Below, piece by piece: positions 6,377-54,375 of a DNA stretch of 64,000 nt. A program made the position numbers and the translations under genes. This DNA is from Candidatus Tayloriibacteriota bacterium (lineage in GTDB: Bacteria; Patescibacteriota; Minisyncoccia; Phycocordibacterales; UBA6065): assembly GCA_016215405.1 (NCBI GenBank), contig JACRJQ010000005.1, forward strand, positions 75,560-139,559, written 5' to 3'. The notes under the pieces are model-generated. The model saw only the letters and a program-made list of their open reading frames with translations. It searched no databases and had not been told where the DNA came from. Numbering within the stretch: the stretch's first letter is position 1; each line of letters opens with the position of its first letter.

Positions 6377-6663
6377 TACCGATGAGGATAACCAAGAGAT
6401 ATGCGATGGGGCTTATGGCGGTAGCCGCTTTTTTCGATCTCCTATCCCTTATCCCCGGCTTTAACGTCGTGACGGCGATCGTGGGCCAGCTTCTCCTCGC
6501 TGGCCTTTTCAGGCTCAAGGGCGTGAATGTCTTCCGGTACAAGCAAGCCGTCACGTACGCCATAGCCACTCTGGTAGAGATCTATCCCGGGTCTAGCTTT
6601 TTGCCGTTCTTTCTCGTAGAGACGCTCGCTCTCATATCCCTCTCCTGGGCAAGGAGGGCCTAG
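6373..6663 (+). CDS. Small hypothetical membrane protein
   Basis: 96 aa with 2-3 predicted TM helices. It overlaps the alr stop by 4 nt. Confidence 0.4.
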   Translation: MIPMRITKRYAMGLMAVAAFFDLLSLIPGFNVVTAIVGQLLLAGLFRLKGVNVFRYKQAVTYAIATLVEIYPGSSFLPFFLVETLALISLSWARRA

Positions 6664-6721
6664 ATTTGCCCTTTTAGAGGGGCTGTGCTACTATCCCCCT
6701 ACATCATTTTGATTCATTCCC

Positions 6722-6877
6722 ATGTCGCAGGACCAACTTATAATCCTTAGGAACAAAGAGACCGGCGAGGTCTATCACACTCGCAAGAACAAGCGAAAGG
6801 TGGAGCGCAAGATCGAGCTTATGAAGTATTCGAAAGCGCTTCGAAAGCGCGTGAAGTTCAAGGAGTCGAAGAAATAA
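6722..6877 (+). CDS. rpmG: 50S ribosomal protein L33 (cysteine-free form); not in the supplied ORF track because it is under 60 aa
   Basis: Translated by hand as MSQDQLIILRNKETGEVYHTRKNKRKVERKIELMKYSKALRKRVKFKESKK (51 aa). The segment KIELMKYSKALRKRVKFKE matches the L33 C-terminal signature RLELKKYDP.LRKHVLHKE. A strong terminator follows. Confidence 0.8.
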   Translation: MSQDQLIILRNKETGEVYHTRKNKRKVERKIELMKYSKALRKRVKFKESKK

Positions 6878-6882
6878 AAATG

Positions 6883-6912
6883 AAAGCCGCCTATAGGGCG
6901 GCTTTCTTTTTT
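6883..6912. terminator. Rho-independent bidirectional terminator after rpmG
   Basis: aaagccgcc tatag ggcggcttt followed by cttttttt. Confidence 0.8.
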
Positions 6913-7124
6913 CGAGCGTTACTTTTTACGGGAGCGCTTCGCGGTCTTTTTCTTGGAGGCCTTCTTGGCCTTTTTGACCGTCTTGCCTCTTTTTACCTTT
7001 CGAACCATGTAGTTGGAGTTAGGCGGATAATGCGCACCTCGACTTACGTACGAGTGATCAAGGCACCTACTAATTGTAGTGCCTCTGCGCGCGAGCACAA
7101 TAGGGTTATGCACTTTTTCGCTCG

Positions 7125-10668: not shown

Positions 10669-13341
10669 ATGAACAAGAAACTAATCATCGGGACATTCGC
10701 CGCGGCGCTCCTTCTGGCCGGAGCGTTCTATCAACACGTATCCGCTCAGTATTACGACGAGTACGAAGATTACAACGTCCCTTATACGCCCGTCGATCCG
10801 TGTCCAGGCAAGATCTGCGGATGGGTCGATGTTTCTAATGTGAGGGCTTTCGGCGTCGTTCACCCTACGCGAAACGGCATAAATTTCTATGGCACTCAGA
10901 CGACGAAGGAGCATCTCTGCCAGCTCGCGGGCTATGACCGCAGCAAGGGGGGCCAGGAGCAGAATAGGAAATGGAGCAAGTGTAACGACGAATACTACGT
11001 CACGTGGACCGGCAGCAACTGGAATATCTATAAATGCGACGCCAGGACGTATACGGTGAGCATATATTGCGAGAAGGACAAGCCGAATAACGCGCCGACG
11101 ATTTCATGGTCTCAAGCCCCGACCGCGGCGGCGTGCGACGCCTCGTACAAGGTAGAGGCGGCAGGCGCCGACGTAGACGGAAATCTTACGGCGGTGAGCG
11201 TCGATAAGAATGATTCCGCGTTCGCCTATGCCGGCGGCGGAAATGGATGGGAGGGCACGTCGGGCAATCCGACATCGGATAGCGGACCTAAGACCGTGAC
11301 CTTTACCGCCTGGTCGCAAGACTCGACAGGCGCACAGTCTGCAAAGATATCGCACACAGTATCGATAGGATCGTGCGTCGCTCCTAACAGGGAACCGACA
11401 GGCAGCCTTTCGGCGAGCTGCGCCGCGCTCTCTGGGAGCGCCTCTGACCCGGACGCTCCGGGCCAGTCGATAGGGGTCCATTTCTATGTTGACGGACCTG
11501 CTGGCAGCGGATCGTTCGCGGGGGCGACGAATACGAATGGAGGCTCGTATAGCATGGCTTTGCCTGAATCGCTCAAGACGGGGACCAACAGGACGGTATA
11601 CGCATACGCCATCGACACCGCCGGCGGCAATAATCCTCAGATCGGCCAGGCGACGGTGAATTGCTCTCCTGCTTCTGCTCCTGCTCCTACGGGATTCATC
11701 GCGGTCAGCCCATCGACCCTTCCTTCATCAGGAGGCAGCGTCACCGTGAGCTGGTCGGTCTCTGGCGCTTCGTCGTGCACGGCTTCTGGCGACTGGTCTG
11801 GCACCAAAGGATCGAGCGGGTCTGAGACGAAGCAGGTGAGCCGGTCGTCGCAATTCGATATAAGCTGCACGGGAGCCGGAGGCACATGGAGCGATAGCGG
11901 CCGAGTGACGGTCGCGGGGAGCCTCAACATCACCGATTTCTTCATCTCCCCGAATTCGGTCAAAGAGGGCGATGGCTTCACCATATACGGCGTCGCGCAA
12001 TGGAACGGGGTCGACTATATAAAGAGGCACAGAGCGTATTTCCAGGGCTCTCAGGGCGGCCAATGGACGTATGCGGCGGGGCCATATGCCGTGACCGTCG
12101 TCGCGAACGGATACTATACGGCCGAGAGGAATCCTTATTCCATGTATATGGGACCGGGATCATATAGCGTCGTGTATGAAGTGGAGGATAATGCCGGCAA
12201 TACGGATTCCGAGACGCGGTCGTTCACGTATCAAGGGGGCCAGCAGTGCGATACCAAGAGCCATACCTGCAGCGCTTCTTATACGGGATACGAATATCCT
12301 CAGTCGCAATCGACTCAGACGCTGACCGTGTATCAGTCGTGCGATATTTCCGAGCAGCAGCACGGCGCGCTCAATATCCCTAACGGGACGGCAACCCTTC
12401 AGAATAGGGCCTACAGCGACCAGTGCCCTCAGTGCTGGTATGACACGCACGCGTATCAGGGCACCACATGGCATTGTTCGAGGACGCTCTCAGGCTATGA
12501 CCATCCTCACTACAGGTCTACGTTCCCTGTGACCTATTACACTTCATGCAGCATAAGCGATGCTGAAAAGGCGGCTCTCGAAGCGCAGGGATATGTGTAT
12601 GGATACCGGCAGCGCACTCAGGAGACCAGTCCGGGCCAGTGGACCGACGTGCACTACATGAGCAACTGCGATTCGAACACCGCGAGATGCACCGATTCTA
12701 ACGCGACAAACTACAACCAGACAGGGTCGTGCCGTTACAACAATCAGACGAGATGCACCGATTCTAACGCTACGAACTACAATCAGATAGGCTCGTGCGA
12801 CTATTCGAACAACAACAATACTGACACGAACACGAACGGCGGGACGGGGAACAATCCTGGAGGAAACGGCAATAATGGCAATAACGGGAATCGTCCGATT
12901 CCGGGCTTTACCATAACGGCAGATAGCTCGAGGACGCCTGTTCAATTCGTCGGGGGGATCGGCGGCGGATCTGAGGCGAGGAGGATAGAGGTTAACCCGG
13001 TGAATGGCTTCAATGAGGATGTCACGGTGACCGTGGCGAGCATCCGCTCGAGGAGCGGGGGCCAGGCTTTGCCGGAAGGGGTCGTAGCGCTCTACTCGCT
13101 CGATAACAAGCCGTTCGCAGGCTCTATGTCTACGACGCAGAGATACAATCCGTCGGTCGGCGGGGGGAAGTATATCGGATCTGAAGGCCTCATCGGGTCG
13201 AGCTTCAAGCTCACGCTCTCGAAAGCCGTCTCGGAGCCGTATGAAGTCGTATTCAATGCGGTTTCGACATCGGGCAAGGCGGCGACGTATGTCCTCCTTA
13301 TCGAGCCGGATGTAAAGAATCCTTCTTTCAAAGAGCTTTAA
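10669..13341 (+). CDS. Large secreted low-complexity protein (Thr/Ser/Gly/Asn-rich) with an internal tandem repeat
   Basis: 890 aa with a signal peptide, many Cys pairs, N/T/G-rich tracts and a 66-nt tandem repeat at 12685..12816. Confidence 0.65.
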   Translation: MNKKLIIGTFAAALLLAGAFYQHVSAQYYDEYEDYNVPYTPVDPCPGKICGWVDVSNVRAFGVVHPTRNGINFYGTQTTKEHLCQLAGYDRSKGGQEQNRKWSKCNDEYYVTWTGSNWNIYKCDARTYTVSIYCEKDKPNNAPTISWSQAPTAAACDASYKVEAAGADVDGNLTAVSVDKNDSAFAYAGGGNGWEGTSGNPTSDSGPKTVTFTAWSQDSTGAQSAKISHTVSIGSCVAPNREPTGSLSASCAALSGSASDPDAPGQSIGVHFYVDGPAGSGSFAGATNTNGGSYSMALPESLKTGTNRTVYAYAIDTAGGNNPQIGQATVNCSPASAPAPTGFIAVSPSTLPSSGGSVTVSWSVSGASSCTASGDWSGTKGSSGSETKQVSRSSQFDISCTGAGGTWSDSGRVTVAGSLNITDFFISPNSVKEGDGFTIYGVAQWNGVDYIKRHRAYFQGSQGGQWTYAAGPYAVTVVANGYYTAERNPYSMYMGPGSYSVVYEVEDNAGNTDSETRSFTYQGGQQCDTKSHTCSASYTGYEYPQSQSTQTLTVYQSCDISEQQHGALNIPNGTATLQNRAYSDQCPQCWYDTHAYQGTTWHCSRTLSGYDHPHYRSTFPVTYYTSCSISDAEKAALEAQGYVYGYRQRTQETSPGQWTDVHYMSNCDSNTARCTDSNATNYNQTGSCRYNNQTRCTDSNATNYNQIGSCDYSNNNNTDTNTNGGTGNNPGGNGNNGNNGNRPIPGFTITADSSRTPVQFVGGIGGGSEARRIEVNPVNGFNEDVTVTVASIRSRSGGQALPEGVVALYSLDNKPFAGSMSTTQRYNPSVGGGKYIGSEGLIGSSFKLTLSKAVSEPYEVVFNAVSTSGKAATYVLLIEPDVKNPSFKEL
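12685..12816 (+). repeat. 66-nt tandem duplication (x2) inside the 890-aa gene, encoding RCTDSNATNYNQ[T/I]GSC
   Basis: agatgcaccgattctaacgc... recurs with period 66 nt. Confidence 0.8.
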
Positions 13342-21951: not shown

Positions 21952-22941
21952 TTGTCCTCTATGGAATACGGATTCTGGAAAAAGCTCCGAAAGCCCTTCT
22001 TCGTCCTCGCGCCTATGGCGGACGTGACGGACTGCGCCTTTCGCCGGATCATCGAGGAGCATGGCCGCCCAGACGTCTTTTGGACCGAATTCGTCTCTGC
22101 CGACGGCCTCGCGTCCCCTGGAAAGAAGGTCCTCATGCGCGATCTCGAATTCACTAAGAAGGAGAAGCCGATCGTCGCCCAGCTTTTCTCTTCGCGGCCG
22201 GATAAGATGCGGGAAGCGGCGGCTCTCTGCCAGAGCCTGGGATTCGACGGCATAGACATAAATATGGGCTGTCCCGACCGCTCGATCGAAAAGCAGGGTT
22301 GCGGCGCCGCTATGATAAAGAACCCGAAGCTCGCGCGCGAGGTGATCCGTGCGGCAAAAGAAGGCGCGCCGAAGCTCCCAGTGTCGGTAAAGACCCGCAT
22401 CGGGTACAACAAGAACGAGATATCGACGTGGATACCTGAGATCCTCTCGGAGGGGGTCGCCGCCCTCACCGTCCACTGTCGCACCCGCAAGGAGCTCTCG
22501 CTCGTGCCTGCGCGCTGGGAGCATGTCCGCGAGGTCGTCTCGCTTCGCGATAGGCTCGCGCCCGATACCTTGATCCTCGGCAACGGCGACGTCAAAGACC
22601 TTGACGACGCGCGCGCGAAGGCGAGCGAGTTCGGCGTCGACGGCGTCATGCTCGGTCGCGCTATATTCGGGAATCCATGGCTCTTCTCGTCCCTTCACGG
22701 AACTCAATCCGTGCCCACCATATCCGAGAAGCTCGAGGTGATGGTCGAGCACACGAAGCTCTTCGAAAAGCTTCTCGGAGATATAAAGAGCTTCGCTATC
22801 ATGAAGAAGCACTATAAGGCGTATGTGAACGGCTTTGACGGGGCCAAGGAGTTTAGGACGGAGCTCATGGAAGCGAAGGACGCGAAGGAGGTGGAAGAGA
22901 GGGTGAAGGCGTTTCTTGCGGCCCGCGCAGACTTGAAATAA
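21952..22941 (+). CDS. tRNA-dihydrouridine synthase
   Basis: FVLAPMADVTDCAFRRII (Dus LAPMAGVTD motif), the FMN-binding TIM barrel and the catalytic Cys context GCP. Confidence 0.9.
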   Translation: MSSMEYGFWKKLRKPFFVLAPMADVTDCAFRRIIEEHGRPDVFWTEFVSADGLASPGKKVLMRDLEFTKKEKPIVAQLFSSRPDKMREAAALCQSLGFDGIDINMGCPDRSIEKQGCGAAMIKNPKLAREVIRAAKEGAPKLPVSVKTRIGYNKNEISTWIPEILSEGVAALTVHCRTRKELSLVPARWEHVREVVSLRDRLAPDTLILGNGDVKDLDDARAKASEFGVDGVMLGRAIFGNPWLFSSLHGTQSVPTISEKLEVMVEHTKLFEKLLGDIKSFAIMKKHYKAYVNGFDGAKEFRTELMEAKDAKEVEERVKAFLAARADLK

Positions 22942-23002
22942 GGGACTTTGAGGAGTAGGGTGGGTCCGACGAATCCTCGTTCCTTTCAAACCCACGACCA
23001 CC

Positions 23003-23443
23003 ATGACCGACAAACGAAAACAGCCGCGGACGAAGGTCCGCTGGTTCCTCTGCGCTCTTACGAACGCTGCGCACCACAACCTCGGGCAGTCTCTCGGCTC
23101 TTCAGGGGTCTCTGACGAGACCCGCCTCAACGAAAAGATGAAGACCGCTGACGGAGAATACGATCTCTGGGACTGCGAAGGCATGACGTCTTCGGACGTC
23201 AAACGCCTCGCGATCGATTTCCTCAAGTCTGACCAGCCTGTGCGCATCTACCGCAAGCACGGAGACAATTTGCCCAAGCGGTGGGCGGATAGCGACGTGA
23301 CGGAGGCCGAACGAGGCTCTCTCGATCGCCAAAAGGAGAAAGGGCGGCCGAAAGAGCCCTCTCCTGAAAGTCCCGCCGCCCTCGCGAAAGCGCGCCTCGA
23401 CGAGCTCCTCGCCAAGCGAGGAGGGTCGAAAAAGGCTTCGTGA
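23003..23443 (+). CDS. Hypothetical protein (K/D/E-rich, non-repetitive)
   Basis: The composition is unlike the Arg/Ala/Gly-rich spurious ORFs typical of this GC content. No SD sequence or homology was recognised. Confidence 0.3.
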   Translation: MTDKRKQPRTKVRWFLCALTNAAHHNLGQSLGSSGVSDETRLNEKMKTADGEYDLWDCEGMTSSDVKRLAIDFLKSDQPVRIYRKHGDNLPKRWADSDVTEAERGSLDRQKEKGRPKEPSPESPAALAKARLDELLAKRGGSKKAS

Positions 23444-23680
23444 TGGATCCGTCCCGACCATCGCGACCTCGAGCTCTGCCGCATCTGCAGCGGAGCTTTT
23501 TTATGGTACAAGGCGGCGCTTGCAAACTTCGGCCGGAAGAGTAGAGTTCATGGTACCGGCCCTGGTCCACAAGAACTAGAGGGCCACAGAGGGCGGTCCG
23601 AACTGTTCGGTTCTGACCGCCCTCTCCCGATCTTTTGAATTCGCCCGTAAGGCTTCACGGGCGCTTAGCCATACTGCGGG

Positions 23681-23715
23681 CGGGAGCTTCAAGTTCCTGC
23701 CCGCTTTTCATATCG
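23681..23715 (+). terminator. GC hairpin plus T-run (paralog 1 of 2)
   Basis: gcgggcggga gcttcaagt tcctgcccgc tttt. It has the same stem as 23884..23917. Confidence 0.5.
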
Positions 23716-23883
23716 AGACCTCTTCTTGCAACGCGGAGTTCGCGGGTGTAGATTTAGGGAGACCTCGGGGCGGCGGCAGTAGGACCTCTCGGGCAAGAAG
23801 CCTTTCGGCATCTAGGGCCTGCTTGGAACCGAGCCTGCCGCTCCAAGTTCTTCGTTTTTTTGGGCGGTATTCATGTATGTGGG

Positions 23884-23917
23884 CGCGGGCGGGACCTCCT
23901 TGGTCCTGCCCGCCTTT
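23884..23917 (+). promoter_or_regulatory. GC hairpin plus T-run (paralog 2 of 2), 16 nt upstream of the pilin A1 start codon
   Basis: gcgggcgggacc tccttg gtcctgcccgc c tttt. The stem is identical to 23681..23708 with a different loop. Confidence 0.45.
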
Positions 23918-23932
23918 TGTTATACTGGGCGC

Positions 23933-24826
23933 ATGAAGCCTTTCCGCGGACGCTTCGGCGCGCAAAGCGGGTTCACCCTCATAGAGCTCCTCGTCGTGAT
24001 ATCGATAATATCGCTCCTTTCGTCTGTCGTCCTCTCGCAGCTTAACGCGGCGAGGGAGAAGGGGAGGCTCGGCAGCGCGAAGCAGTTCGCGGCCCAAGTC
24101 GACCGCGTGGCGGGAGATAGGGCTGTCGGTATCTGGGAGCTCGACGAGTGCTCCGGCGCGGCCGCGGCGGATAGGTCTGGAAACGGGAACAACGCTTCGC
24201 TTTCAGGCAGCCCTTCATGGCTTTCAGATACTCCCGACTCGACAGGCTGCTCTCTGAGCCTTAACGGCTCGACCCAAGGCGCTCTCGTGCCTCATGCGCC
24301 ATCCCTAGATCTCACAGGCGACATGACCTTTTCCATATGGTTCTATGCCAACGCGTCGAGCTGGCCCGCGAGCTGGCAGTCCCTCATGTCGAAAGGAAAC
24401 GCGACTCCGCGCAACTATTTTATGAACGTGATGAGCGGGGAGAGCGTCGTCGCGAACGATTGCTCCGACCAGACCGGGGGCTTTCAGTTCGGCTACCACG
24501 ACGGGACGACTTTCCGGCTCGTCGATATAAACGCGAGCTCTGTGCCGACCCAGCGGTGGGTGAACGCTGTCGGGGTGATATCCGCGAATGGGGCTAATCG
24601 CGACGTGAAGCTCTATATAGACGGACAGTTGAGGGCTTCGGCTTTGTGCTCTAACGCCCCTACGTCGAATACGGTGCCTCTCTCGATCGGCTCTATCCAG
24701 AATTCGATCGAGTTCTTCAACGGGAGAATAGATAAGGTCCGCCTATTCGAAAAATCGCTTACAGCGTCCGAAGTAGGCAGGATGTATGCCGCAGAGGCTC
24801 CGAAATATGAATTCGCATATGAATAG
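23933..24826 (+). CDS. Type IV pilin-like protein A1 (prepilin leader/methylation motif plus LamG-type Laminin_G_3-like domain)
   Basis: The class III leader ends ...G|FTLIELLVVISIISLLSSVVLSQLNAAREKGR. The mature part carries the WELDECSG....DRSGNGNNASL signature. Start moved to the internal Met; the track ORF begins at 23873. Confidence 0.8.
   Translation: MKPFRGRFGAQSGFTLIELLVVISIISLLSSVVLSQLNAAREKGRLGSAKQFAAQVDRVAGDRAVGIWELDECSGAAAADRSGNGNNASLSGSPSWLSDTPDSTGCSLSLNGSTQGALVPHAPSLDLTGDMTFSIWFYANASSWPASWQSLMSKGNATPRNYFMNVMSGESVVANDCSDQTGGFQFGYHDGTTFRLVDINASSVPTQRWVNAVGVISANGANRDVKLYIDGQLRASALCSNAPTSNTVPLSIGSIQNSIEFFNGRIDKVRLFEKSLTASEVGRMYAAEAPKYEFAYE
23971..24062 (+). repeat. 92-nt perfect direct repeat shared by pilin A1 and A2; the second copy is at 24834..24925
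   Basis: ttcaccctcatagagctcctcgtcgtgatatcgataatatcgctcctttcgtctgtcgtcctctcgcagcttaacgcggcgagggagaaggg is identical in both genes. Confidence 0.9.
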
Positions 24827-25637
24827 AAGAGCCTTCACCCTCATAGAGCTCCTCGTCGTGATATCGATAATATCGCTCCTTTCGTCTGTCGTCCTCTCGC
24901 AGCTTAACGCGGCGAGGGAGAAGGGAAGATTGGGCGCCGCCCGCCATTTTGCGGCCCAGGTCGAGCATACCGCGGGAGACCTCGTCGTGGGCATGTGGAG
25001 CTTCGACGAGTGCGCGGGGCTTTCCACCGCCGATAGGTCCGGGTTCGGGAACAACGGAGTCCTTCAGAATATGGCGGGCACGTCCGAGTGGTCGTCCGAT
25101 ACGCCGTCAGGTACGGGATGCTCGCTCCTCCTTGACGGCACGAACGACTACGTCTCCGTCCCGGATTCTGCGAGCCTCGATCTCAGCGGCGTGGCGACCT
25201 TGTCTATCTGGGTAAAATCGAGCGGCACGAACGCATATTCCGGATTCATGAATAAGACGAGCGCCCTTACCGGATATCAATTCGGCATCGGCGCTTCGAA
25301 TAGCATCCGCGGGGATCTCTATAACGGCACGACCTATATAAGCCCGATGCACACGACGAACGTCCTCGATGGAAAATGGCATCATATCGCGGTGGCGTAT
25401 GACGGCGTCGCCGCAAAGGTCTATGTCGACGGGATCGCGGGCGGCGCGGTCGCGGGATCAGGCTTCGTCACGGCTAACAACGCCTCTTTCGTCATAGGCA
25501 ACGACGTGTGCTGCGGAGGGAGATTCTTTAACGGCAGGATAGACGAGGCGAGGGTATTCGCCAAGGCTCTGACGGCGAAAGAGGTAGAAAGGATCTACGC
25601 GTCTGAGAAAAAGGGGTCCCAGGTCGCCGGCATCTGA
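24807..25637 (+). CDS. Type IV pilin-like protein A2 (prepilin N-terminus plus LamG-type domain)
   Basis: AFTLIELLVVISIISLLSSVVLSQLNAAREKGR and WSFDECAGLSTADRSGFGNNGVL. It overlaps the A1 stop. Confidence 0.8.
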   Translation: MNSHMNRRAFTLIELLVVISIISLLSSVVLSQLNAAREKGRLGAARHFAAQVEHTAGDLVVGMWSFDECAGLSTADRSGFGNNGVLQNMAGTSEWSSDTPSGTGCSLLLDGTNDYVSVPDSASLDLSGVATLSIWVKSSGTNAYSGFMNKTSALTGYQFGIGASNSIRGDLYNGTTYISPMHTTNVLDGKWHHIAVAYDGVAAKVYVDGIAGGAVAGSGFVTANNASFVIGNDVCCGGRFFNGRIDEARVFAKALTAKEVERIYASEKKGSQVAGI

Positions 25638-25649
25638 TATACTTTCCAT

Positions 25650-26684
25650 ATGTCACACGAAGTCCTCTATAGGAAATACAGGCCCCAGAACTTCAAGGAG
25701 GTGATCGGCCAGGATTCGGTCGTAAAGGCCCTCAAGGGCGCGATAGAGTCGGGAGCGGTCGCTCACGCCTATCTTTTCGCGGGCTCTCGCGGCATCGGCA
25801 AGACTTCGATCGCGCGAATATTCGCGAACGAGATAGGGACGAGCCCGAACGACGTCTATGAGATAGACGCGGCGTCGAACCGCGGCATCGACGATATCCG
25901 AGCGCTCCGCGACGCGGTCGCAACGCTTCCGTTCGAGTCCAAATTTAAAGTCTATATCATCGACGAAGTCCACATGCTCACGAAGGAGGCCTTTAACGCG
26001 CTCCTCAAGACCCTCGAAGAGCCGCCGAAGCATGTCGTATTCATCCTCGCTACGACCGAGGTCCATAAGCTCCCTGAGACCATCGTCTCGCGCTGCCAGG
26101 TGTTCGAGTTCAAGCGCCCGACCCTCGAGATACTCAAGGACGTCGTCACGACCATCGCCAAAAAGGAAGGCTTCTCGATCGAGCCTTCGGCGGCAGAGCT
26201 CGTAGCCCTCGTGGGCGATGGGTCGTTCCGCGATACTCACGGGACCCTCGAGCGCGTCATCGCCGGCATAAGCGGCAAGAAGATATCGAAAGAGGATGTC
26301 GAGGAAGCGACAGGCGCTCCGAAATCAGAGCTCGTCCGCGGATTCGTCCTCGCCCTCGCGAACAAGGATTCGAAGGCCGCGTTCGATTCTTTGGCCAAGC
26401 TGCGCGCGAAGTCGTTCGACCCGAAGCTCTTCCTCGAGCTATCCGTATCCCTCGTCCGTCTCGCCCTCTTCGTGAAGATGGGCGTATCGAGCGACCTTGT
26501 CGATCAGGCATCGGACGAAGACAAGGCGTTTTTCAAAGACGTCTCGGCGAAAGTCGATTCGAAGCTCCTGCGCTCTCTCCTCGGCGCATTCGACTATATC
26601 GGCGTCTCTCCGATCCGCGAACTGCCTCTCGAGCTCGCCGTGCTCGACATAGCAGGGGAGAAGGAGCAGAGGCTTTTCGCCTAG
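25650..26684 (+). CDS. dnaX: DNA polymerase III subunit gamma/tau (short form, no tau extension)
   Basis: YRPQNFKEVIGQ, Walker A GSRGIGKTSIA, DEVHMLTKEAFNALLKTLEEPP and the sensor TIVSRCQVFEF. Confidence 0.9.
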   Translation: MSHEVLYRKYRPQNFKEVIGQDSVVKALKGAIESGAVAHAYLFAGSRGIGKTSIARIFANEIGTSPNDVYEIDAASNRGIDDIRALRDAVATLPFESKFKVYIIDEVHMLTKEAFNALLKTLEEPPKHVVFILATTEVHKLPETIVSRCQVFEFKRPTLEILKDVVTTIAKKEGFSIEPSAAELVALVGDGSFRDTHGTLERVIAGISGKKISKEDVEEATGAPKSELVRGFVLALANKDSKAAFDSLAKLRAKSFDPKLFLELSVSLVRLALFVKMGVSSDLVDQASDEDKAFFKDVSAKVDSKLLRSLLGAFDYIGVSPIRELPLELAVLDIAGEKEQRLFA

Positions 26685-27949: not shown

Positions 27950-27970
27950 CTACTCGCCGCAGCTTCTAGT

Positions 27971-28039
27971 TGCCGGACTTGGAATCGAACCAAGATTCTA
28001 GGCTCCAAAGGCCCATGTCCTACCATTAGACGATCCGGC
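27971..28039 (-). tRNA. tRNA-Gln (anticodon TTG); no encoded CCA
   Basis: Reverse complement GCCGGAT..TCTAATGGTAGGA..TGGGC-CTTTGGA-GCCTA..CTTGGTTCGATTCCAAGTCCGGCA. The 7-nt loop geometry puts TTG at positions 34-36. Pro (TGG) would need a shifted loop and is less likely. Confidence 0.75.
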
Positions 28040-28076
28040 AATATGTGGCCTTAAAAGTACACCAAAAGAGCTTTAA

Positions 28077-29006
28077 TTGAAAGTTTTGGATGCTATAGTA
28101 AATGGTATGAATAAGATAATCGCATACATAGTCGTCCTTCTCGTCCTTATCGGAGGTTTCTATGCCCTTAATAATTACATATATGAGAAAAAGCAGGCCG
28201 TAGCCGCGCCTTATCCGCGCGACGCGGAATACGTGATTGACGGCAAGCGCGTAAAGCTCTCCGACGGCACGTTCGAGGAGGAGGGTGTCGTCACGACCTA
28301 CTTTGGAAACGAGCTGGCAGAGGATCTCAACGGAGACGGCGCGATCGATACGGCGCTTCTCCTCACGCAAACCAAAGAGGGGAGTCCAGAGATCTTGTTC
28401 TATGCGGTCGCGGCTATCTATACCGAGAGAGGCTATGTCGGATCCGATGGTTTCCTCCTCGGCGACAGAATCGCGCCGCAGACGATCGTGGTCAGCCAGA
28501 ATCCGAGGCACAAGAATGTGATCGCGGTCAATTATGCCGAAAGGAAGCCTGGGGAGTCGTTCGACGTGCGCGCGAGCATGGGAAAGAGCGCGTATCTCAA
28601 GCTCGACCCTGATTCTATGCGATGGGCGATCGTCGAGCCGGATTTCGAAGGCGAGGCCGATCCATCTCGCATGACCCTCGGCATGAAGGACTGGGTGTGG
28701 ATGAAGGCTCTCTATAACGACGGTCGCGAGATCGCACCAAAGGTTCCCGGCAAGTTCGGCATATCGTTTGCAAAGGACGGCCGATACTCTCTAGCGACGG
28801 ATTGCAATTCGATGGGCGGGTCTTATGTCGCAGAGGGTAGAAAGATAGCTTTTAGCCAGGGCATGTCGACCCTTATGTACTGCGAAGGGTCTCAGGAATC
28901 CGAATTCTCTGCGCTCATCCGCGATGTGGAGGGGTACAGCTTCACGTCCAAAGGCGAGCTCGTCCTCGACCTAAAGTTCGACAGCGGGTCGGTGATATTC
29001 AGATAG
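28077..29006 (+). CDS. Membrane-anchored protein with C-terminal META/HslJ-like domain
   Basis: N-terminal TM helix, then C-terminal DCNSMGGSYVAEGRKIAFSQGMSTLMYCEG...GELVLDLKF resembling the META (DUF306/HslJ) domain. Confidence 0.55.
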   Translation: MKVLDAIVNGMNKIIAYIVVLLVLIGGFYALNNYIYEKKQAVAAPYPRDAEYVIDGKRVKLSDGTFEEEGVVTTYFGNELAEDLNGDGAIDTALLLTQTKEGSPEILFYAVAAIYTERGYVGSDGFLLGDRIAPQTIVVSQNPRHKNVIAVNYAERKPGESFDVRASMGKSAYLKLDPDSMRWAIVEPDFEGEADPSRMTLGMKDWVWMKALYNDGREIAPKVPGKFGISFAKDGRYSLATDCNSMGGSYVAEGRKIAFSQGMSTLMYCEGSQESEFSALIRDVEGYSFTSKGELVLDLKFDSGSVIFR

Positions 29007-51439: not shown

Positions 51440-51602
51440 GGGTTACATATTCCCACTTTTTAGACATTTGTCAACATATCGATTGACTCGCATGGAAGTC
51501 TGTGTATAATTAACTCCGTCGTTAGTTTCTCGGTGGTGGAAGCGTAAAGTCTAAGCCATAGGGAAGGTCGGACGATAGTTAAAAGAAATAGCAAGTCGCA
51601 CA

Positions 51603-51902
51603 ATGGCAAAGAAACTTTACGTGGGAAACCTCCCTTACAGCACGACTTCTGAGAGCCTCCGAGCAGGCTTTGAGAAGGCTGGCGCTGTCCTCAAGGCAGA
51701 CGTTCTCATGGACAAGATGACCGGCCGCTCGCGAGGCTTCGGCTTCGTAGAGATGGAAGACGCGGACGCTGACAAGGCGATCGCGATGTTCGACGGCAAG
51801 GAATTCGAAGGACGCTCCGTTAAGGTTAACGAAGCTCGCCCACTCGAAGACAGGCCTCGCCGCTCGTTCGGTGATCGAAACGACAACCGCCGAAGCTTCT
51901 AA
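51603..51902 (+). CDS. RRM-type RNA-binding protein
   Basis: RNP-2 KLYVGNL and RNP-1 RGFGFVEM. 99 aa. Confidence 0.85.
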   Translation: MAKKLYVGNLPYSTTSESLRAGFEKAGAVLKADVLMDKMTGRSRGFGFVEMEDADADKAIAMFDGKEFEGRSVKVNEARPLEDRPRRSFGDRNDNRRSF

Positions 51903-51921
51903 AGCTTCTCGATAGTCGGAC

Positions 51922-51947
51922 AAAAGCCGCCCTTACGGGCGGCTTTT
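51922..51947 (+). terminator. Rho-independent terminator after the RRM gene
   Basis: aaaagccgccc ttac gggcggctttt. Confidence 0.8.
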
Positions 51948-51978
51948 GCTTCGAATGCCTGCTGCTATAATGAGGAGC

Positions 51979-52803
51979 ATGCGTATAAGGAAGTCTCTCG
52001 ACAAAGACGGATTTACCCTCATAGAGCTCCTGGTCGTCATATCGATAATCGCGCTCCTCTCAAGCGTCGTGCTTTCTAGCCTCAATTCCTCCCGCGCGAA
52101 AGCCCGTCTTGCCGCCGGAAAGCAGTTCGCTTCCCAGGCTGACAGGGTAGCAGGGGAGCTCGCCATAGTACTCTTCGATTTCGACTCTAGTCCGGCCGAT
52201 AAATCGAGCGTGAGCGGGACTTTAACATACAGCGGCAACACCGCCTATTCCGCGGACACTCCTTGGGCTTCCGGCAGCTCGCTTTTCTTCGACGGGTCGG
52301 GCGATTACGCCTTAAGCGCGAGCAACCTGCCCTTATCCGGAGACGCCGAATTCTCTATGTGCGCGTGGATCAAATGGAACGGGGCATGGTCTTCCGACTA
52401 TCCGTCCTTTATGGGAAATAACAGCACAGGCGCGGCGAATCAAGGGCTCTCGTTCACCGTCCGTGACGGGCGGCCTGCGGTCGACTTTTGGGTGAACAGG
52501 TTCAGGGCGACGTCTGCTATAACCGCCGACGAGTGGCACCATGTCTGCGGCACCAAATCGCCCGGCCTCATCGGCTCCGCTACGAAGCTATACGTGGACG
52601 GCGTCCAAGTCGCAGGCGCGGTCGAAGGGTCGAACGTCTCGCCTTCGATCGTTCTCGCTCCCGCTGTGATCGGACGCCTCGACGGCAGCCGCTACTTCAA
52701 CGGATGGGTAGACAGCGCCCATTTCTTCGCAAAGACGCTCGTGGCGTCAGAGGTCCGCGACCTTTATGCCGCAGAGGCCTCCGCGTTCATAGCAGGGATA
52801 TAG
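51979..52803 (+). CDS. Type IV pilin-like protein B1 (prepilin N-terminus plus LamG-like domain)
   Basis: Leader MRIRKSLDKDG|FTLIELLVVISIIALLSSVVLSSL. Start set to the Met giving a short class III leader. Confidence 0.75.
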   Translation: MRIRKSLDKDGFTLIELLVVISIIALLSSVVLSSLNSSRAKARLAAGKQFASQADRVAGELAIVLFDFDSSPADKSSVSGTLTYSGNTAYSADTPWASGSSLFFDGSGDYALSASNLPLSGDAEFSMCAWIKWNGAWSSDYPSFMGNNSTGAANQGLSFTVRDGRPAVDFWVNRFRATSAITADEWHHVCGTKSPGLIGSATKLYVDGVQVAGAVEGSNVSPSIVLAPAVIGRLDGSRYFNGWVDSAHFFAKTLVASEVRDLYAAEASAFIAGI

Positions 52804-52807
52804 ATAT

Positions 52808-53647
52808 ATGGATAACGCACGGAGCATACGGCACAAAGGATTCACGCTCATCGAGCTCCTCGTCGTGATATCGATCATATCGCTCCTCTCGAGCGTCGTA
52901 TTATCGAGCCTTAATGCGGCGAGAGAGAAGGGCAGGAGAGGCGCGATACGGCAGTTCTCGTCCACTCTCGATCACGCGCTCGGCGCGTCATATGCGGGCG
53001 TCTGGGATTTCGACGAGTGCTCGGGCCCTACGACCTCGGACAGGTCGGGTTCTGGCACTAGCGGGACCCTTATAGGAGGCCTCGCCTGGTCGGTAGACAC
53101 CGTCTCTGGAACGGGCTGCTCGCTCCTTTTCGACGGCGTAGACGACTGGCTCAACAACGTGGCTCAGCCGGTGTTTCCGACGACTCCTAACGTATTCACC
53201 GTCGCGTTCGCGATAAAGCCGGACAATCAATACGGGCATGTCATAACGCCTCAGTCTAACGGCGTAGATCAGTGGATAGAATACGATCAGAGCAGCCAAA
53301 GGATCGGCATGAGGGTGGCGCAGAGCGCGGATACGAACGAGAGGCTCAGGCCCTCTTCGACGGGATCCGTTCCGTACGGGAGATGGTCTCATGTCGCGAT
53401 CTCCGTTAACGATAAAGCCATAAAGATATATATAAACGGCAAGCTCGATGCCGAATACACGGAGACTATCGATATCGGAGCCTGGGCGGGCCTGTGGGCG
53501 GTAGGCCAAAGAGGCATCAGTACCAACTGGTTCAAGGGCAATCTCGACCAGCTTCGGATATACGCGACAGTCCTCGGCGCGTCAGAGATAGGTAAGCTCT
53601 ATGCGGCAGCAGTCGGTCGGTCAGAGAGGCTATCCGCCATAGAATGA
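52808..53647 (+). CDS. Type IV pilin-like protein B2 (prepilin N-terminus plus LamG-type domain)
   Basis: KGFTLIELLVVISIISLLSSVVLSSLNAAREKGR and WDFDECSGPTTSDRSGSGTSGTL. Confidence 0.8.
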   Translation: MDNARSIRHKGFTLIELLVVISIISLLSSVVLSSLNAAREKGRRGAIRQFSSTLDHALGASYAGVWDFDECSGPTTSDRSGSGTSGTLIGGLAWSVDTVSGTGCSLLFDGVDDWLNNVAQPVFPTTPNVFTVAFAIKPDNQYGHVITPQSNGVDQWIEYDQSSQRIGMRVAQSADTNERLRPSSTGSVPYGRWSHVAISVNDKAIKIYINGKLDAEYTETIDIGAWAGLWAVGQRGISTNWFKGNLDQLRIYATVLGASEIGKLYAAAVGRSERLSAIE

Positions 53648-54375
53648 GACATATGAGGCACAAAGGATTCACGCTCATCGAGCTTCTCGTCGTGATATCG
53701 ATCATATCGCTCCTCTCGAGCGTCGTGCTATCGAGCCTTAATGCGGCGAGAGAAAACGCGCGTCTGACGGCCGCTCGACAGTTCGCCGGGATGGTCGAAC
53801 GCTCCGTGGGCGATCAAGCCGCCGCGATATTCGGTTTCGGAGAGGGGTCGGGAGCGACAACGAGAGACAAATCGGGCTCGAATATCATGACCTTGAGCTC
53901 CTCGGGATTATGGGGCGCTTCTGGATTGAGCGGTCAGGCGTACGCGCTATCGTTCAACGGCACGAGCGATTACGCGAGCTCTCAAGCGACGACTATGAAC
54001 GGCGCGAGCGAGACCGTGGGTATCTGGATAAGGACGACCGGCACGACGGGCGCGATGGCGGCGGGACAGGACTGGTGGAGGAGGCTTTTTACCGACAGAT
54101 GGAACATCATCGATTCTGCGAATAATTACGCTCAGATCTACTTTCCGGCGCCGATAAACGACGGTAAATGGCATTACACCGCGTACAGTCTCTCGGGAAA
54201 CTCCGTGAGGGTATATCTCGACGGCAAACAGGTCGGGTCGGCGACCTTGCCGGCGGCGATGGCTCCATATACGGGCAACTGGCAGATCGGCGGCCAGATG
54301 TGCGCGGGCACGTGTTCGAATTTCCTCCAGGCCTCTTATGGAGGGCTCCATGTCTATAACGCGAGCCTCTTTTAG
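53644..54375 (+). CDS. Type IV pilin-like protein B3 (prepilin N-terminus plus LamG-like domain)
   Basis: MRHMRHKGFTLIELLVVISIISLLSSVVLSSLNAAREN. The start overlaps the B2 stop (ATGA). Confidence 0.8.
   Translation: MRHMRHKGFTLIELLVVISIISLLSSVVLSSLNAARENARLTAARQFAGMVERSVGDQAAAIFGFGEGSGATTRDKSGSNIMTLSSSGLWGASGLSGQAYALSFNGTSDYASSQATTMNGASETVGIWIRTTGTTGAMAAGQDWWRRLFTDRWNIIDSANNYAQIYFPAPINDGKWHYTAYSLSGNSVRVYLDGKQVGSATLPAAMAPYTGNWQIGGQMCAGTCSNFLQASYGGLHVYNASLF

Follow-up and report, generated by a model that had tools for sequence, protein, structure and literature searches.

Two Predicted Small-RNA Genes in Tandem between a Hypothetical Gene and a Pilin Gene of a Paceibacteria Genome

Results

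A noncoding gap between hyp and pilin A1 is predicted to hold separate transcription signals

The stretch of contig JACRJQ010000005.1 analyzed here, 64 kb long and referred to below as the window, comes from a genome of the Paceibacteria (Patescibacteria). One of its loci has the gene order dprA, serS, ftsQ-like, dus, hyp, gap, pilin A1, pilin A2, and dnaX, and the gap, 489 nt at positions 23444 to 23932, is the subject of this study. It lies between hyp, a plus-strand open reading frame (ORF) of 146 amino acids (aa) at 23003 to 23443, and the type IV pilin gene A1 (23933 to 24826, plus strand), which is followed on the same strand by A2 (about 24819 to 25637); both pilins carry the Pfam domains N_methyl and Laminin_G_3. 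hyp represents a fast-evolving family found at the same position in most relatives; it has no Pfam domain, and its AlphaFold2 model (pLDDT 57) was too poor for a fold search. An identical copy of the locus is present in a Logan assembly (L001). We read the gap as several transcription signals in series, each independent of the others, rather than as one element, and we predict from its sequence, with moderate confidence, that its modules are a terminator for hyp, two diverged small noncoding RNA genes in tandem, and a separate promoter for pilin A1.

No credible ORF lies within the gap: in the ORF list, plus-strand frames do not exceed 38 aa, and the sole long frame touching the gap (129 aa, minus strand, 23708 to 24097) runs antisense to the start of pilin A1. 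A reading made from the letters of the DNA alone (the sequence-only reading) had described the region as noncoding and full of strong hairpins, two of them near-identical GC hairpins followed by T-runs, and the ORF list, RNA folding, and a terminator scan confirmed this description; its further label of GC-rich holds marginally (59% in the gap, 57% in the window). The two hairpins share the stem GCGGGCGGGA/TCCTGCCCGC. The first spans 23676 to 23704 with TTTT at 23705 to 23708, the originally proposed 23681 to 23715 starting about 5 nt off, and the second spans 23885 to 23913, followed by C and by TTTT at 23915 to 23918, so that hairpin and tail end 14 nt, rather than 16 nt, before the ATG at 23933. 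This exact 10-mer stem occurs three times in 64 kb, twice within the gap. The two 33-nt terminator hairpins are 82% identical and spaced 209 nt apart; their stems of 12 to 13 bp have predicted energies of −25.5 and −27.7 kcal/mol, and both were listed by the terminator scan.

Taken as a whole, the gap has a minimum free energy (MFE) of −226 kcal/mol, compared with −194 ± 6.8 kcal/mol for shuffled sequences (z = −4.7), and its plus strand folds 23 kcal/mol more stably than its minus strand. Because of this better folding, and because G·U pairs and T-runs make sense there only, the plus strand was taken as the RNA strand.

Two similarly built units lie in tandem

hyp is followed by a predicted intrinsic terminator, T0 (23471 to 23502), whose predicted fold pairs GAGCUCUGC... 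with ...GCGGAGCUU and runs into T6. Two units follow, and these, like T0, are on the plus strand. The first begins with a promoter-like element, P1 (23504 to 23547), made up of a block TGGTACAAGG (23504 to 23513), a −35 hexamer TTGCAA (23520 to 23525), a 16-nt spacer, and a −10 hexamer TAGAGT (23542 to 23547). Its predicted RNA (23553 to 23709; about 157 nt) has an MFE of −79 kcal/mol against −52.9 kcal/mol for shuffles (z = −7.1) and would comprise a hairpin (23563 to 23586), a rod (23588 to 23625) whose arms at 23588 to 23603 and 23610 to 23625 contain the GAGGGCGGTC/GACCGCCCTC stem, a linker CCCGAUCUUUUGA (23626 to 23638), a further hairpin (23642 to 23663; arms CGCCCGT at 23642 to 23648 and ACGGGCG at 23657 to 23663), and the first terminator hairpin with U4. 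The second promoter-like element, P2 (23726 to 23754), consists of TTGCAA (23726 to 23731), a 17-nt spacer ending in GGGTG, and TAGATT (23749 to 23754). The RNA predicted to follow it (23760 to 23918; about 159 nt; z = −2.6 against shuffles) would contain a 92-nt rod (23760 to 23851), a U7 run (23855 to 23861) that might act as an early stop, a spacer, and the second terminator hairpin followed by CUUUU. We infer that both units are transcribed, the RNA ends having been placed from motif distances.

The intervals 23505 to 23712 and 23713 to 23925 align colinearly, promoter with promoter, rod with rod, and terminator with terminator, at a global alignment score of 95 against 49 ± 9.6 for shuffles (z of about 4.8). 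From this colinear alignment we interpret the two units as the products of an old duplication in tandem, the duplicated unit measuring about 209 nt.

The pattern TTGCAA-N15-19-TAGAKT, picked after the sites had been seen, occurs twice in 64 kb (0.05 expected), both times in the gap. The window's tRNA-Gln gene (27969 to 28040; promoter region 28041 to 28130, minus strand) has a promoter of the same form as those of the units, TTTCAA-N17-GGTG-TACTTT, with the GGTGTA seen in the predicted small-RNA promoters of relatives. tRNA-Tyr uses TGcTAGAGT, the −10 hexamer of which equals that of P1 and of dus. A sigma-54 reading of TGTGYAYA..TTGCA was rejected by eye, the invariant GG being missing.

Pilin A1 and dnaX appear to have leaderless promoters of their own

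Downstream of the last terminator, an extended −10 box, TGTTATACT (23918 to 23926), ends 6 nt before the ATG of pilin A1 (spacer GGGCGC), without a Shine-Dalgarno sequence; we regard this plus-strand element (23918 to 23935) as a leaderless promoter. Because pilin A1 has this promoter of its own after the second hairpin, we read that hairpin as the end of the upstream unit, outside any pilin leader. This layout also stands before dnaX in the window (25635 to 25652, plus strand; TGATATACT, spacer TTCCAT, ATG at 25650), throughout the relatives, and in more distant Paceibacteria with dus next to dnaX. In the window, the TG of the extended −10 box of dnaX comes from the TGA stop codon of pilin A2.

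TANNNT lies 5 to 8 nt before the ATG at 16 of 53 gene starts, compared with 2.9% of other ATGs (an approximately 10-fold excess that depends on crude gene calling), often preceded by TGn and lacking a Shine-Dalgarno sequence, which suggests that leaderless mRNAs are widespread in this Paceibacteria genome. Window starts with a box of the leaderless type include 239, 1439, 5192, 8069, 21961, 23933, 25650, 28107, 34061, 44153, 45825, 51979, and 58303. The start at 51979 opens a second pilin cluster (51979 to 54375) of three N-methyl pilins, the first of which has a leaderless-like TATAAT-N7-ATG. This cluster is preceded (region 51468 to 54375) by a gene for an RRM-type RNA-binding protein (51603 to 51902) with a TTGACT..TGTATAAT promoter, a 5′ untranslated region (UTR) of about 90 nt, and a GCCGCCC/GGGCGGC terminator (about 51926 to 51946).

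Related genomes carry the element directly upstream of dnaX

Relatives were found by a DnaX protein search, in which more than 60 homologues had an identity of at least 74% (up to 91%), and by contig look-ups; ten contigs were fetched. Their DnaX identities to the window include 91% (L165), 88% (L163), 87% (L166), 85% (L171), 84% (L169), 83% (L172), 82% (L173), 81% (L175), and 80% (L002). A contig scan with hyp as the query gave no match, and DnaX scans of genome and metagenome contigs returned mostly distant genomes (at most 57% identity) and one at 75% without the unit. All fetched relatives have a noncoding stretch of 140 to 490 nt directly before leaderless dnaX, and a hairpin with a T-run equivalent to T0 stands right after the hyp stop codon. 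Three more distant Paceibacteria (L003, L085, and L087) have dus directly before the leaderless dnaX promoter and no unit. hyp itself is 72% identical in L002 (blastp, over 66% of the query; 65% in a separate alignment) and 31% identical in L166, the DnaX of which has 87% identity; an unrelated 131-aa protein takes the place of hyp in L165, and L173 and L175 lack it.

A promoter block composed of TGTG(T/C)A(C/T)A, 8 to 10 nt, CTTGCA(A/C/T), 16 to 17 nt ending in GGTG, and TANNNT is found in all relatives except L002. It is kept in L165, L163, L166, L171, L169, L172, L173, and L175, across DnaX identities of 81 to 91%, and it is present in L173 and L175 although hyp is missing there and the unit directly follows dus. 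P1 is the positional counterpart of TGTGTACAAC..CTTGCAA-N17-GGTGTANNNT in L163, L166, L169, L171, and L172, and P2 is nearly identical to the P2 of L165, CTTGCAT-N..-CCGGGTGTAGATT. Among 175 fetched loci (about 1.4 Mb), CTTGCA-N14-18-GGTGTANNNT matched at this position only, in 12 loci that comprise the L001 copy of the window and seven of eight related lineages; L172 and L175 have slightly variant versions.

Two units are likewise present in L165, the closest relative. Unit 2 of L165 and unit 2 of the window are 61% identical overall; promoter and rod 5′ arm are nearly identical, and the pairs of the rod are kept. Window unit 1 keeps the context of T0 plus TGGTACAAGG and the GAUCUUUU motif of the single unit of other relatives.

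Every unit (n = 12, window and relatives) is more stably folded than its dinucleotide shuffles, with z values between −2.6 and −7.6, the predicted folds being rows of separate hairpins that end in a terminator. When the sequences were read by eye, the units showed no conserved ORF, and their −10 boxes had no ATG at leaderless distance. The bodies range from 140 to 275 nt. GAUCUUUU(C/G) follows the first rod in window unit 1, L172, L166, and L002, a motif that recurs in 4 to 6 of the 12 units, as do other short motifs such as GAUCUUUUC; ACAUUACGCC stands before the terminator in 6 of the 12. All units close with a GC stem of 11 to 14 bp (−23 to −28 kcal/mol) and a T-run, and many terminal hairpins begin GCGGGC(G/A)G. 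Outer-stem pairs of the normalized terminal hairpins, counted by script, are canonical in 90 of 90 cases (ten distinct stems), with several pair types at 8 of the 9 positions. In the window and in relatives, the terminal hairpin lies 15 to 75 nt before a leaderless −10 box, and in L165 (TGATATACTTTCTTCATG) and L002 (TGATATACTTGGGCCATG) the −10 box of dnaX follows it directly. The structured noncoding RNA that the sequence-only reading had considered is supported in outline, in that a unit combines a conserved promoter-like element, an ORF-free folded body, and a strong intrinsic terminator.

The pilin pair is a later insertion

In none of the ten related contigs do pilins stand between the element and dnaX. 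The junction reads ...TTTTG ATATACTTTCTTCATG(dnaX) in L165 and ...CTTTTG TTATACTGGGCGCATG(pilin A1) ... CATCTG ATATACTTTCCATATG(dnaX) in the window, where the pilin pair is flanked by near-identical 9-mers, TGTTATACT (23918 to 23926) and TGATATACT (25635 to 25643). From the position of the element directly before dnaX in all relatives, without pilins, and from the comparison of junctions, we conclude that the A1-A2 pair is a later, lineage-specific insertion between the predicted small-RNA terminator and the −10 box of dnaX.

Two other proposals of the sequence-only reading fare poorly here. A riboregulatory leader or attenuator for the pilin operon is contradicted by the presence of the element before dnaX in ten pilin-free contigs and by the −10 box that belongs to pilin A1 itself. 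It had also been suggested that the gap could hold decayed remnants of a pilin cassette, with fragments resembling the pilin 5′ region; these fragments are at chance level (15 of 17 positions match between 23793 to 23809 and 23931 to 23947), neither blastn nor blastx revealed similarity between the gap and the remaining window or its five pilin genes (all matches E > 0.3), and the element is present in relatives that lack the pilins.

The relatives have a further unannotated unit in the gap downstream of dus, which measures about 500 to 670 nt where hyp or another small gene follows (L163 4591 to 5250, L165 1023 to 1696, L166 4725 to 5265, L002 7506 to 8000, L172 1708 to 2312, and L083 1 to 400). 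Its components are a strong promoter of the form TACTTGACTT-N17-TATGATAC or close to it, hairpins that are conserved, and a terminator, joined in L163, L165, and L083 by an ORF of 27 to 39 aa (MNNGPPQN.., MHDPPQG.., and MTTAPPIT..). In L165 and L083, a perfect DnaA-box-like TTATCCACA stands just upstream of its promoter. This unit is absent from the window, where dus and hyp are 61 nt apart.

The units match no Rfam family

A search of Rfam 15 with 801 nt (23300 to 24100), which the sequence-only reading had named as the way to recognize a known family, gave no family match in the gap at E ≤ 10 beyond chance-level hits, of which the one to sX13 covers T0 only; the families covered include signal recognition particle (SRP) RNA, 6S RNA, riboswitches, T-boxes, and leaders. 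At the gathering threshold, the window contains four tRNAs elsewhere and nothing more. Four relatives (E ≤ 1) and 17 other loci from Paceibacteria and the candidate phyla radiation (CPR) likewise gave tRNAs only.

Several specific candidates were rejected. ARAGORN found no transfer-messenger RNA. A mobile element, phage, or plasmid origin was set aside on the grounds that blastn gave no match in phage and plasmid collections, that the 64-kb window holds no other copy, and that the syntenic position is fixed. A CsrA/RsmA sponge does not fit the count of GGA, which is not enriched (35 observed, 38 expected). Full-text literature searches yielded no report of small RNAs from Patescibacteria (CPR) and nothing relevant on their leaderless genes. 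The RNA family is absent from Rfam and was not met with in these searches, and the locus would be of an unannotated but ordinary bacterial small-RNA kind.

Discussion

On balance, we consider it probable that the two units are independently transcribed, tandemly duplicated small-RNA genes. In the order of events we propose, the hyp transcript would end at T0. Each unit would then be transcribed from its own sigma-70-type promoter (TTGCAA, 16 to 17 nt, TAGAGT or TAGATT) into a structured RNA of about 155 to 160 nt and would stop at a strong intrinsic terminator, the shared GCGGGCGGGA hairpin with its U-run. The last of these terminators would halt transcription 14 nt before pilin A1 and so shield the leaderless promoter from read-through, and the TGTTATACT-N6-ATG promoter would start a leaderless pilin A1 mRNA at its AUG. 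In the relatives, the same RNA gene would end just before the leaderless promoter of dnaX.

Because promoter, terminator, and short unpaired motifs are conserved and the rest is variable, a trans-acting regulatory function, through base pairing or protein binding, is our best guess for the role of these RNAs. The linker CCCGAUCUUUUGA, predicted to be mostly single-stranded, is the best candidate for a contact site. In L163 and L166, UGACAU in the units is complementary to the 5′ end of dnaX, AUGUCA, a match of 6 nt only that is not conserved.

Several observations weigh against this interpretation. A strict sigma-70 consensus scan of 22800 to 24200 found no promoter, the −10 boxes TAGAGT and TAGATT are weak, P1 lacks the GGTG of the other blocks, and in L002 the promoter block is missing from the unit. 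The bodies are variable in length and align with a mean column identity of 36 to 45%, too poor for a covariance model, and their only recurrent features are short motifs in 4 to 6 of 12 units, which would be uncommon if such an RNA had a fixed fold or seed. In limited tests on the 64-kb window, no target could be recognized: the complement of CCCGATCTTTTC is not enriched, and duplex energies with eight mRNA 5′ ends were not beyond those of shuffles (best z = −2.3 in 16 tests). The whole dus-dnaX interval evolves fast, so that some of the differences could have arisen by neutral drift and the transcripts might be without a function in themselves. Finally, the comparison draws on about ten available related genomes, several of them close to each other.

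Foremost among the alternatives, if unlikely in our estimation, is that the units act in cis, with transcription and termination tuning or shielding the downstream leaderless promoter (by insulation, supercoiling, or polymerase hand-over); the product would then be irrelevant, and the body would drift while staying noncoding and folded. Such a role would account for the promoter block and terminal hairpin being best conserved when the body is not, for the constant placement of the unit end 15 to 75 nt before a leaderless −10 box, and for the uniform terminator strength of −23 to −28 kcal/mol. However, L003, L085, and L087 drive dnaX from the same leaderless promoter with no unit at all, so that expression of dnaX does not depend on one; if the body were drifting, one would not expect z values of −3 to −7 in every genome, or recurrent motifs such as GAUCUUUUC. 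We think it somewhat less probable again, and a minor prospect, that the locus is either a clade-specific modular RNA locus that works in cis, its conserved promoter and uniformly strong terminator delivering or shielding polymerase for the leaderless gene while its body is rebuilt, or one encoding an abundant clade-specific housekeeping RNA. The first of these would amount to a new way to control leaderless genes in ultra-small Patescibacteria.

That the gap is a nonfunctional spacer is also unlikely, by our assessment slightly more so than a cis-acting unit. On this account, the dus-dnaX interval would be a hot spot for insertion and duplication, and the hairpins would be duplicated terminators and leftovers that do nothing except end the hyp transcript. 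The interval is indeed hypervariable, with hyp present, absent, or replaced, pilins inserted, and bodies of 140 to 275 nt; the units are tandem duplicates, and L002 has no promoter block. Against this, T0 alone suffices to terminate hyp, and the promoter block is conserved while the dnaX DNA has diverged (83.5% identity between the window and L165) and the surroundings change. Compensatory changes keep every terminal hairpin intact, and a compact genome with a median gap of about 50 nt would rarely keep 200 to 450 nt of junk at a fixed place.

We give little credence to a leader or attenuator of the riboswitch type, in which transcription from P1 or P2 would read into pilin A1 (or into dnaX in relatives) whenever the terminators were overridden. 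Two or three terminator-like hairpins do stand in series between promoter and gene, and the G-rich and C-rich arms of the rod and terminator could pair alternatively (GGGCGG with CCGCCC). Nevertheless, the downstream gene has its own promoter, with a −10 box between the last terminator and the ATG, and no Shine-Dalgarno sequence, so that read-through would bury an AUG that is normally 5′ terminal. What follows the element differs, a pilin gene in the window and the unrelated dnaX elsewhere; the body of the element is not conserved and contains no conserved aptamer-like core, and no riboswitch, T-box, leader, or other cis-regulatory family of Rfam matched at E ≤ 10. A very divergent SRP or 6S RNA is highly improbable: a position immediately upstream of dnaX, a promoter like that of tRNA-Gln, and a length of 150 to 270 nt would suit such a housekeeping RNA, but SRP RNA (RF00169) has no match in the gap or in four relatives and none beside dnaX in 17 other Paceibacteria and CPR loci, 6S RNA (RF00013 and related families) has no Rfam match either, no rod of the 6S type forms between the 5′ and 3′ ends, and the body is not conserved, in contrast to the nearly invariant domain IV of SRP RNA.

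The predicted small-RNA genes can be set beside known systems. OmrA and OmrB of Escherichia coli and PrrF1 and PrrF2 of Pseudomonas aeruginosa are encoded by tandem paralogous small-RNA genes. Like these, the units are adjacent, lie on the same strand, and are each predicted to have their own promoter and intrinsic terminator. OmrA and OmrB have similar ends and a diverged middle, as here, where the two units have promoter and terminator hairpin in common but not their bodies. In sequence the units are unrelated to either pair, however, and the window bodies are much more GC-rich and laden with hairpins. In Bacillus subtilis and other Firmicutes, the SRP RNA gene (scr or ffs) lies directly upstream of dnaX; the predicted RNA gene of the relatives likewise stands immediately upstream of dnaX on the same strand, but it lacks an Rfam SRP match and a conserved domain IV, and its body varies between close relatives. 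The terminators resemble other intrinsic terminators that precede promoters in having a GC stem of 11 to 14 bp and a U-run 15 to 75 nt before the next −10 box, as at the second pilin cluster; unlike ordinary ones, they close small units with a conserved promoter of their own and not just a protein-coding gene.

Leaderless units in which the −10 box precedes the start codon by about 7 nt are known from Actinobacteria, Deinococcus, and archaea. Pilin A1, dnaX, and many other window genes are similar, with TANNNT (often TGnTANNNT) 5 to 8 nt before the ATG and no Shine-Dalgarno sequence. This likeness concerns only the 3′ edge of the gap and explains why the hairpins are not a leader. Given the order of terminator, −10 box, and AUG without a leader, hairpins upstream of a gene should not readily be taken for mRNA leaders. 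For metatranscriptomes of uncultured Patescibacteria, a small-RNA gene recognizable by its conserved promoter and terminator would offer a handle, and the comparison of loci dates the pilin pair as a recent insertion. These findings overturn no current ideas.

Three further features were noted. The last codons of hyp, AAAGGCTTCGTG (23431 to 23442), are complementary at 11 of 12 positions to the start of pilin A1, CATGAAGCCTTT (23932 to 23943); the region holds many pairs of such length, and this one is probably due to chance. The largest gap of the crude gene map, 748 nt at 6377 to 7124, contains a perfect bidirectional terminator (6882 to 6906) and a promoter-like site, TTCCCA-N16-TATAAT (6717 to 6744). 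In L163, an RVT_1 reverse transcriptase gene lies beside a bAvd gene 5 kb downstream of dnaX (11569 to 12989), in what looks like a diversity-generating retroelement that the corresponding region of the window does not have.

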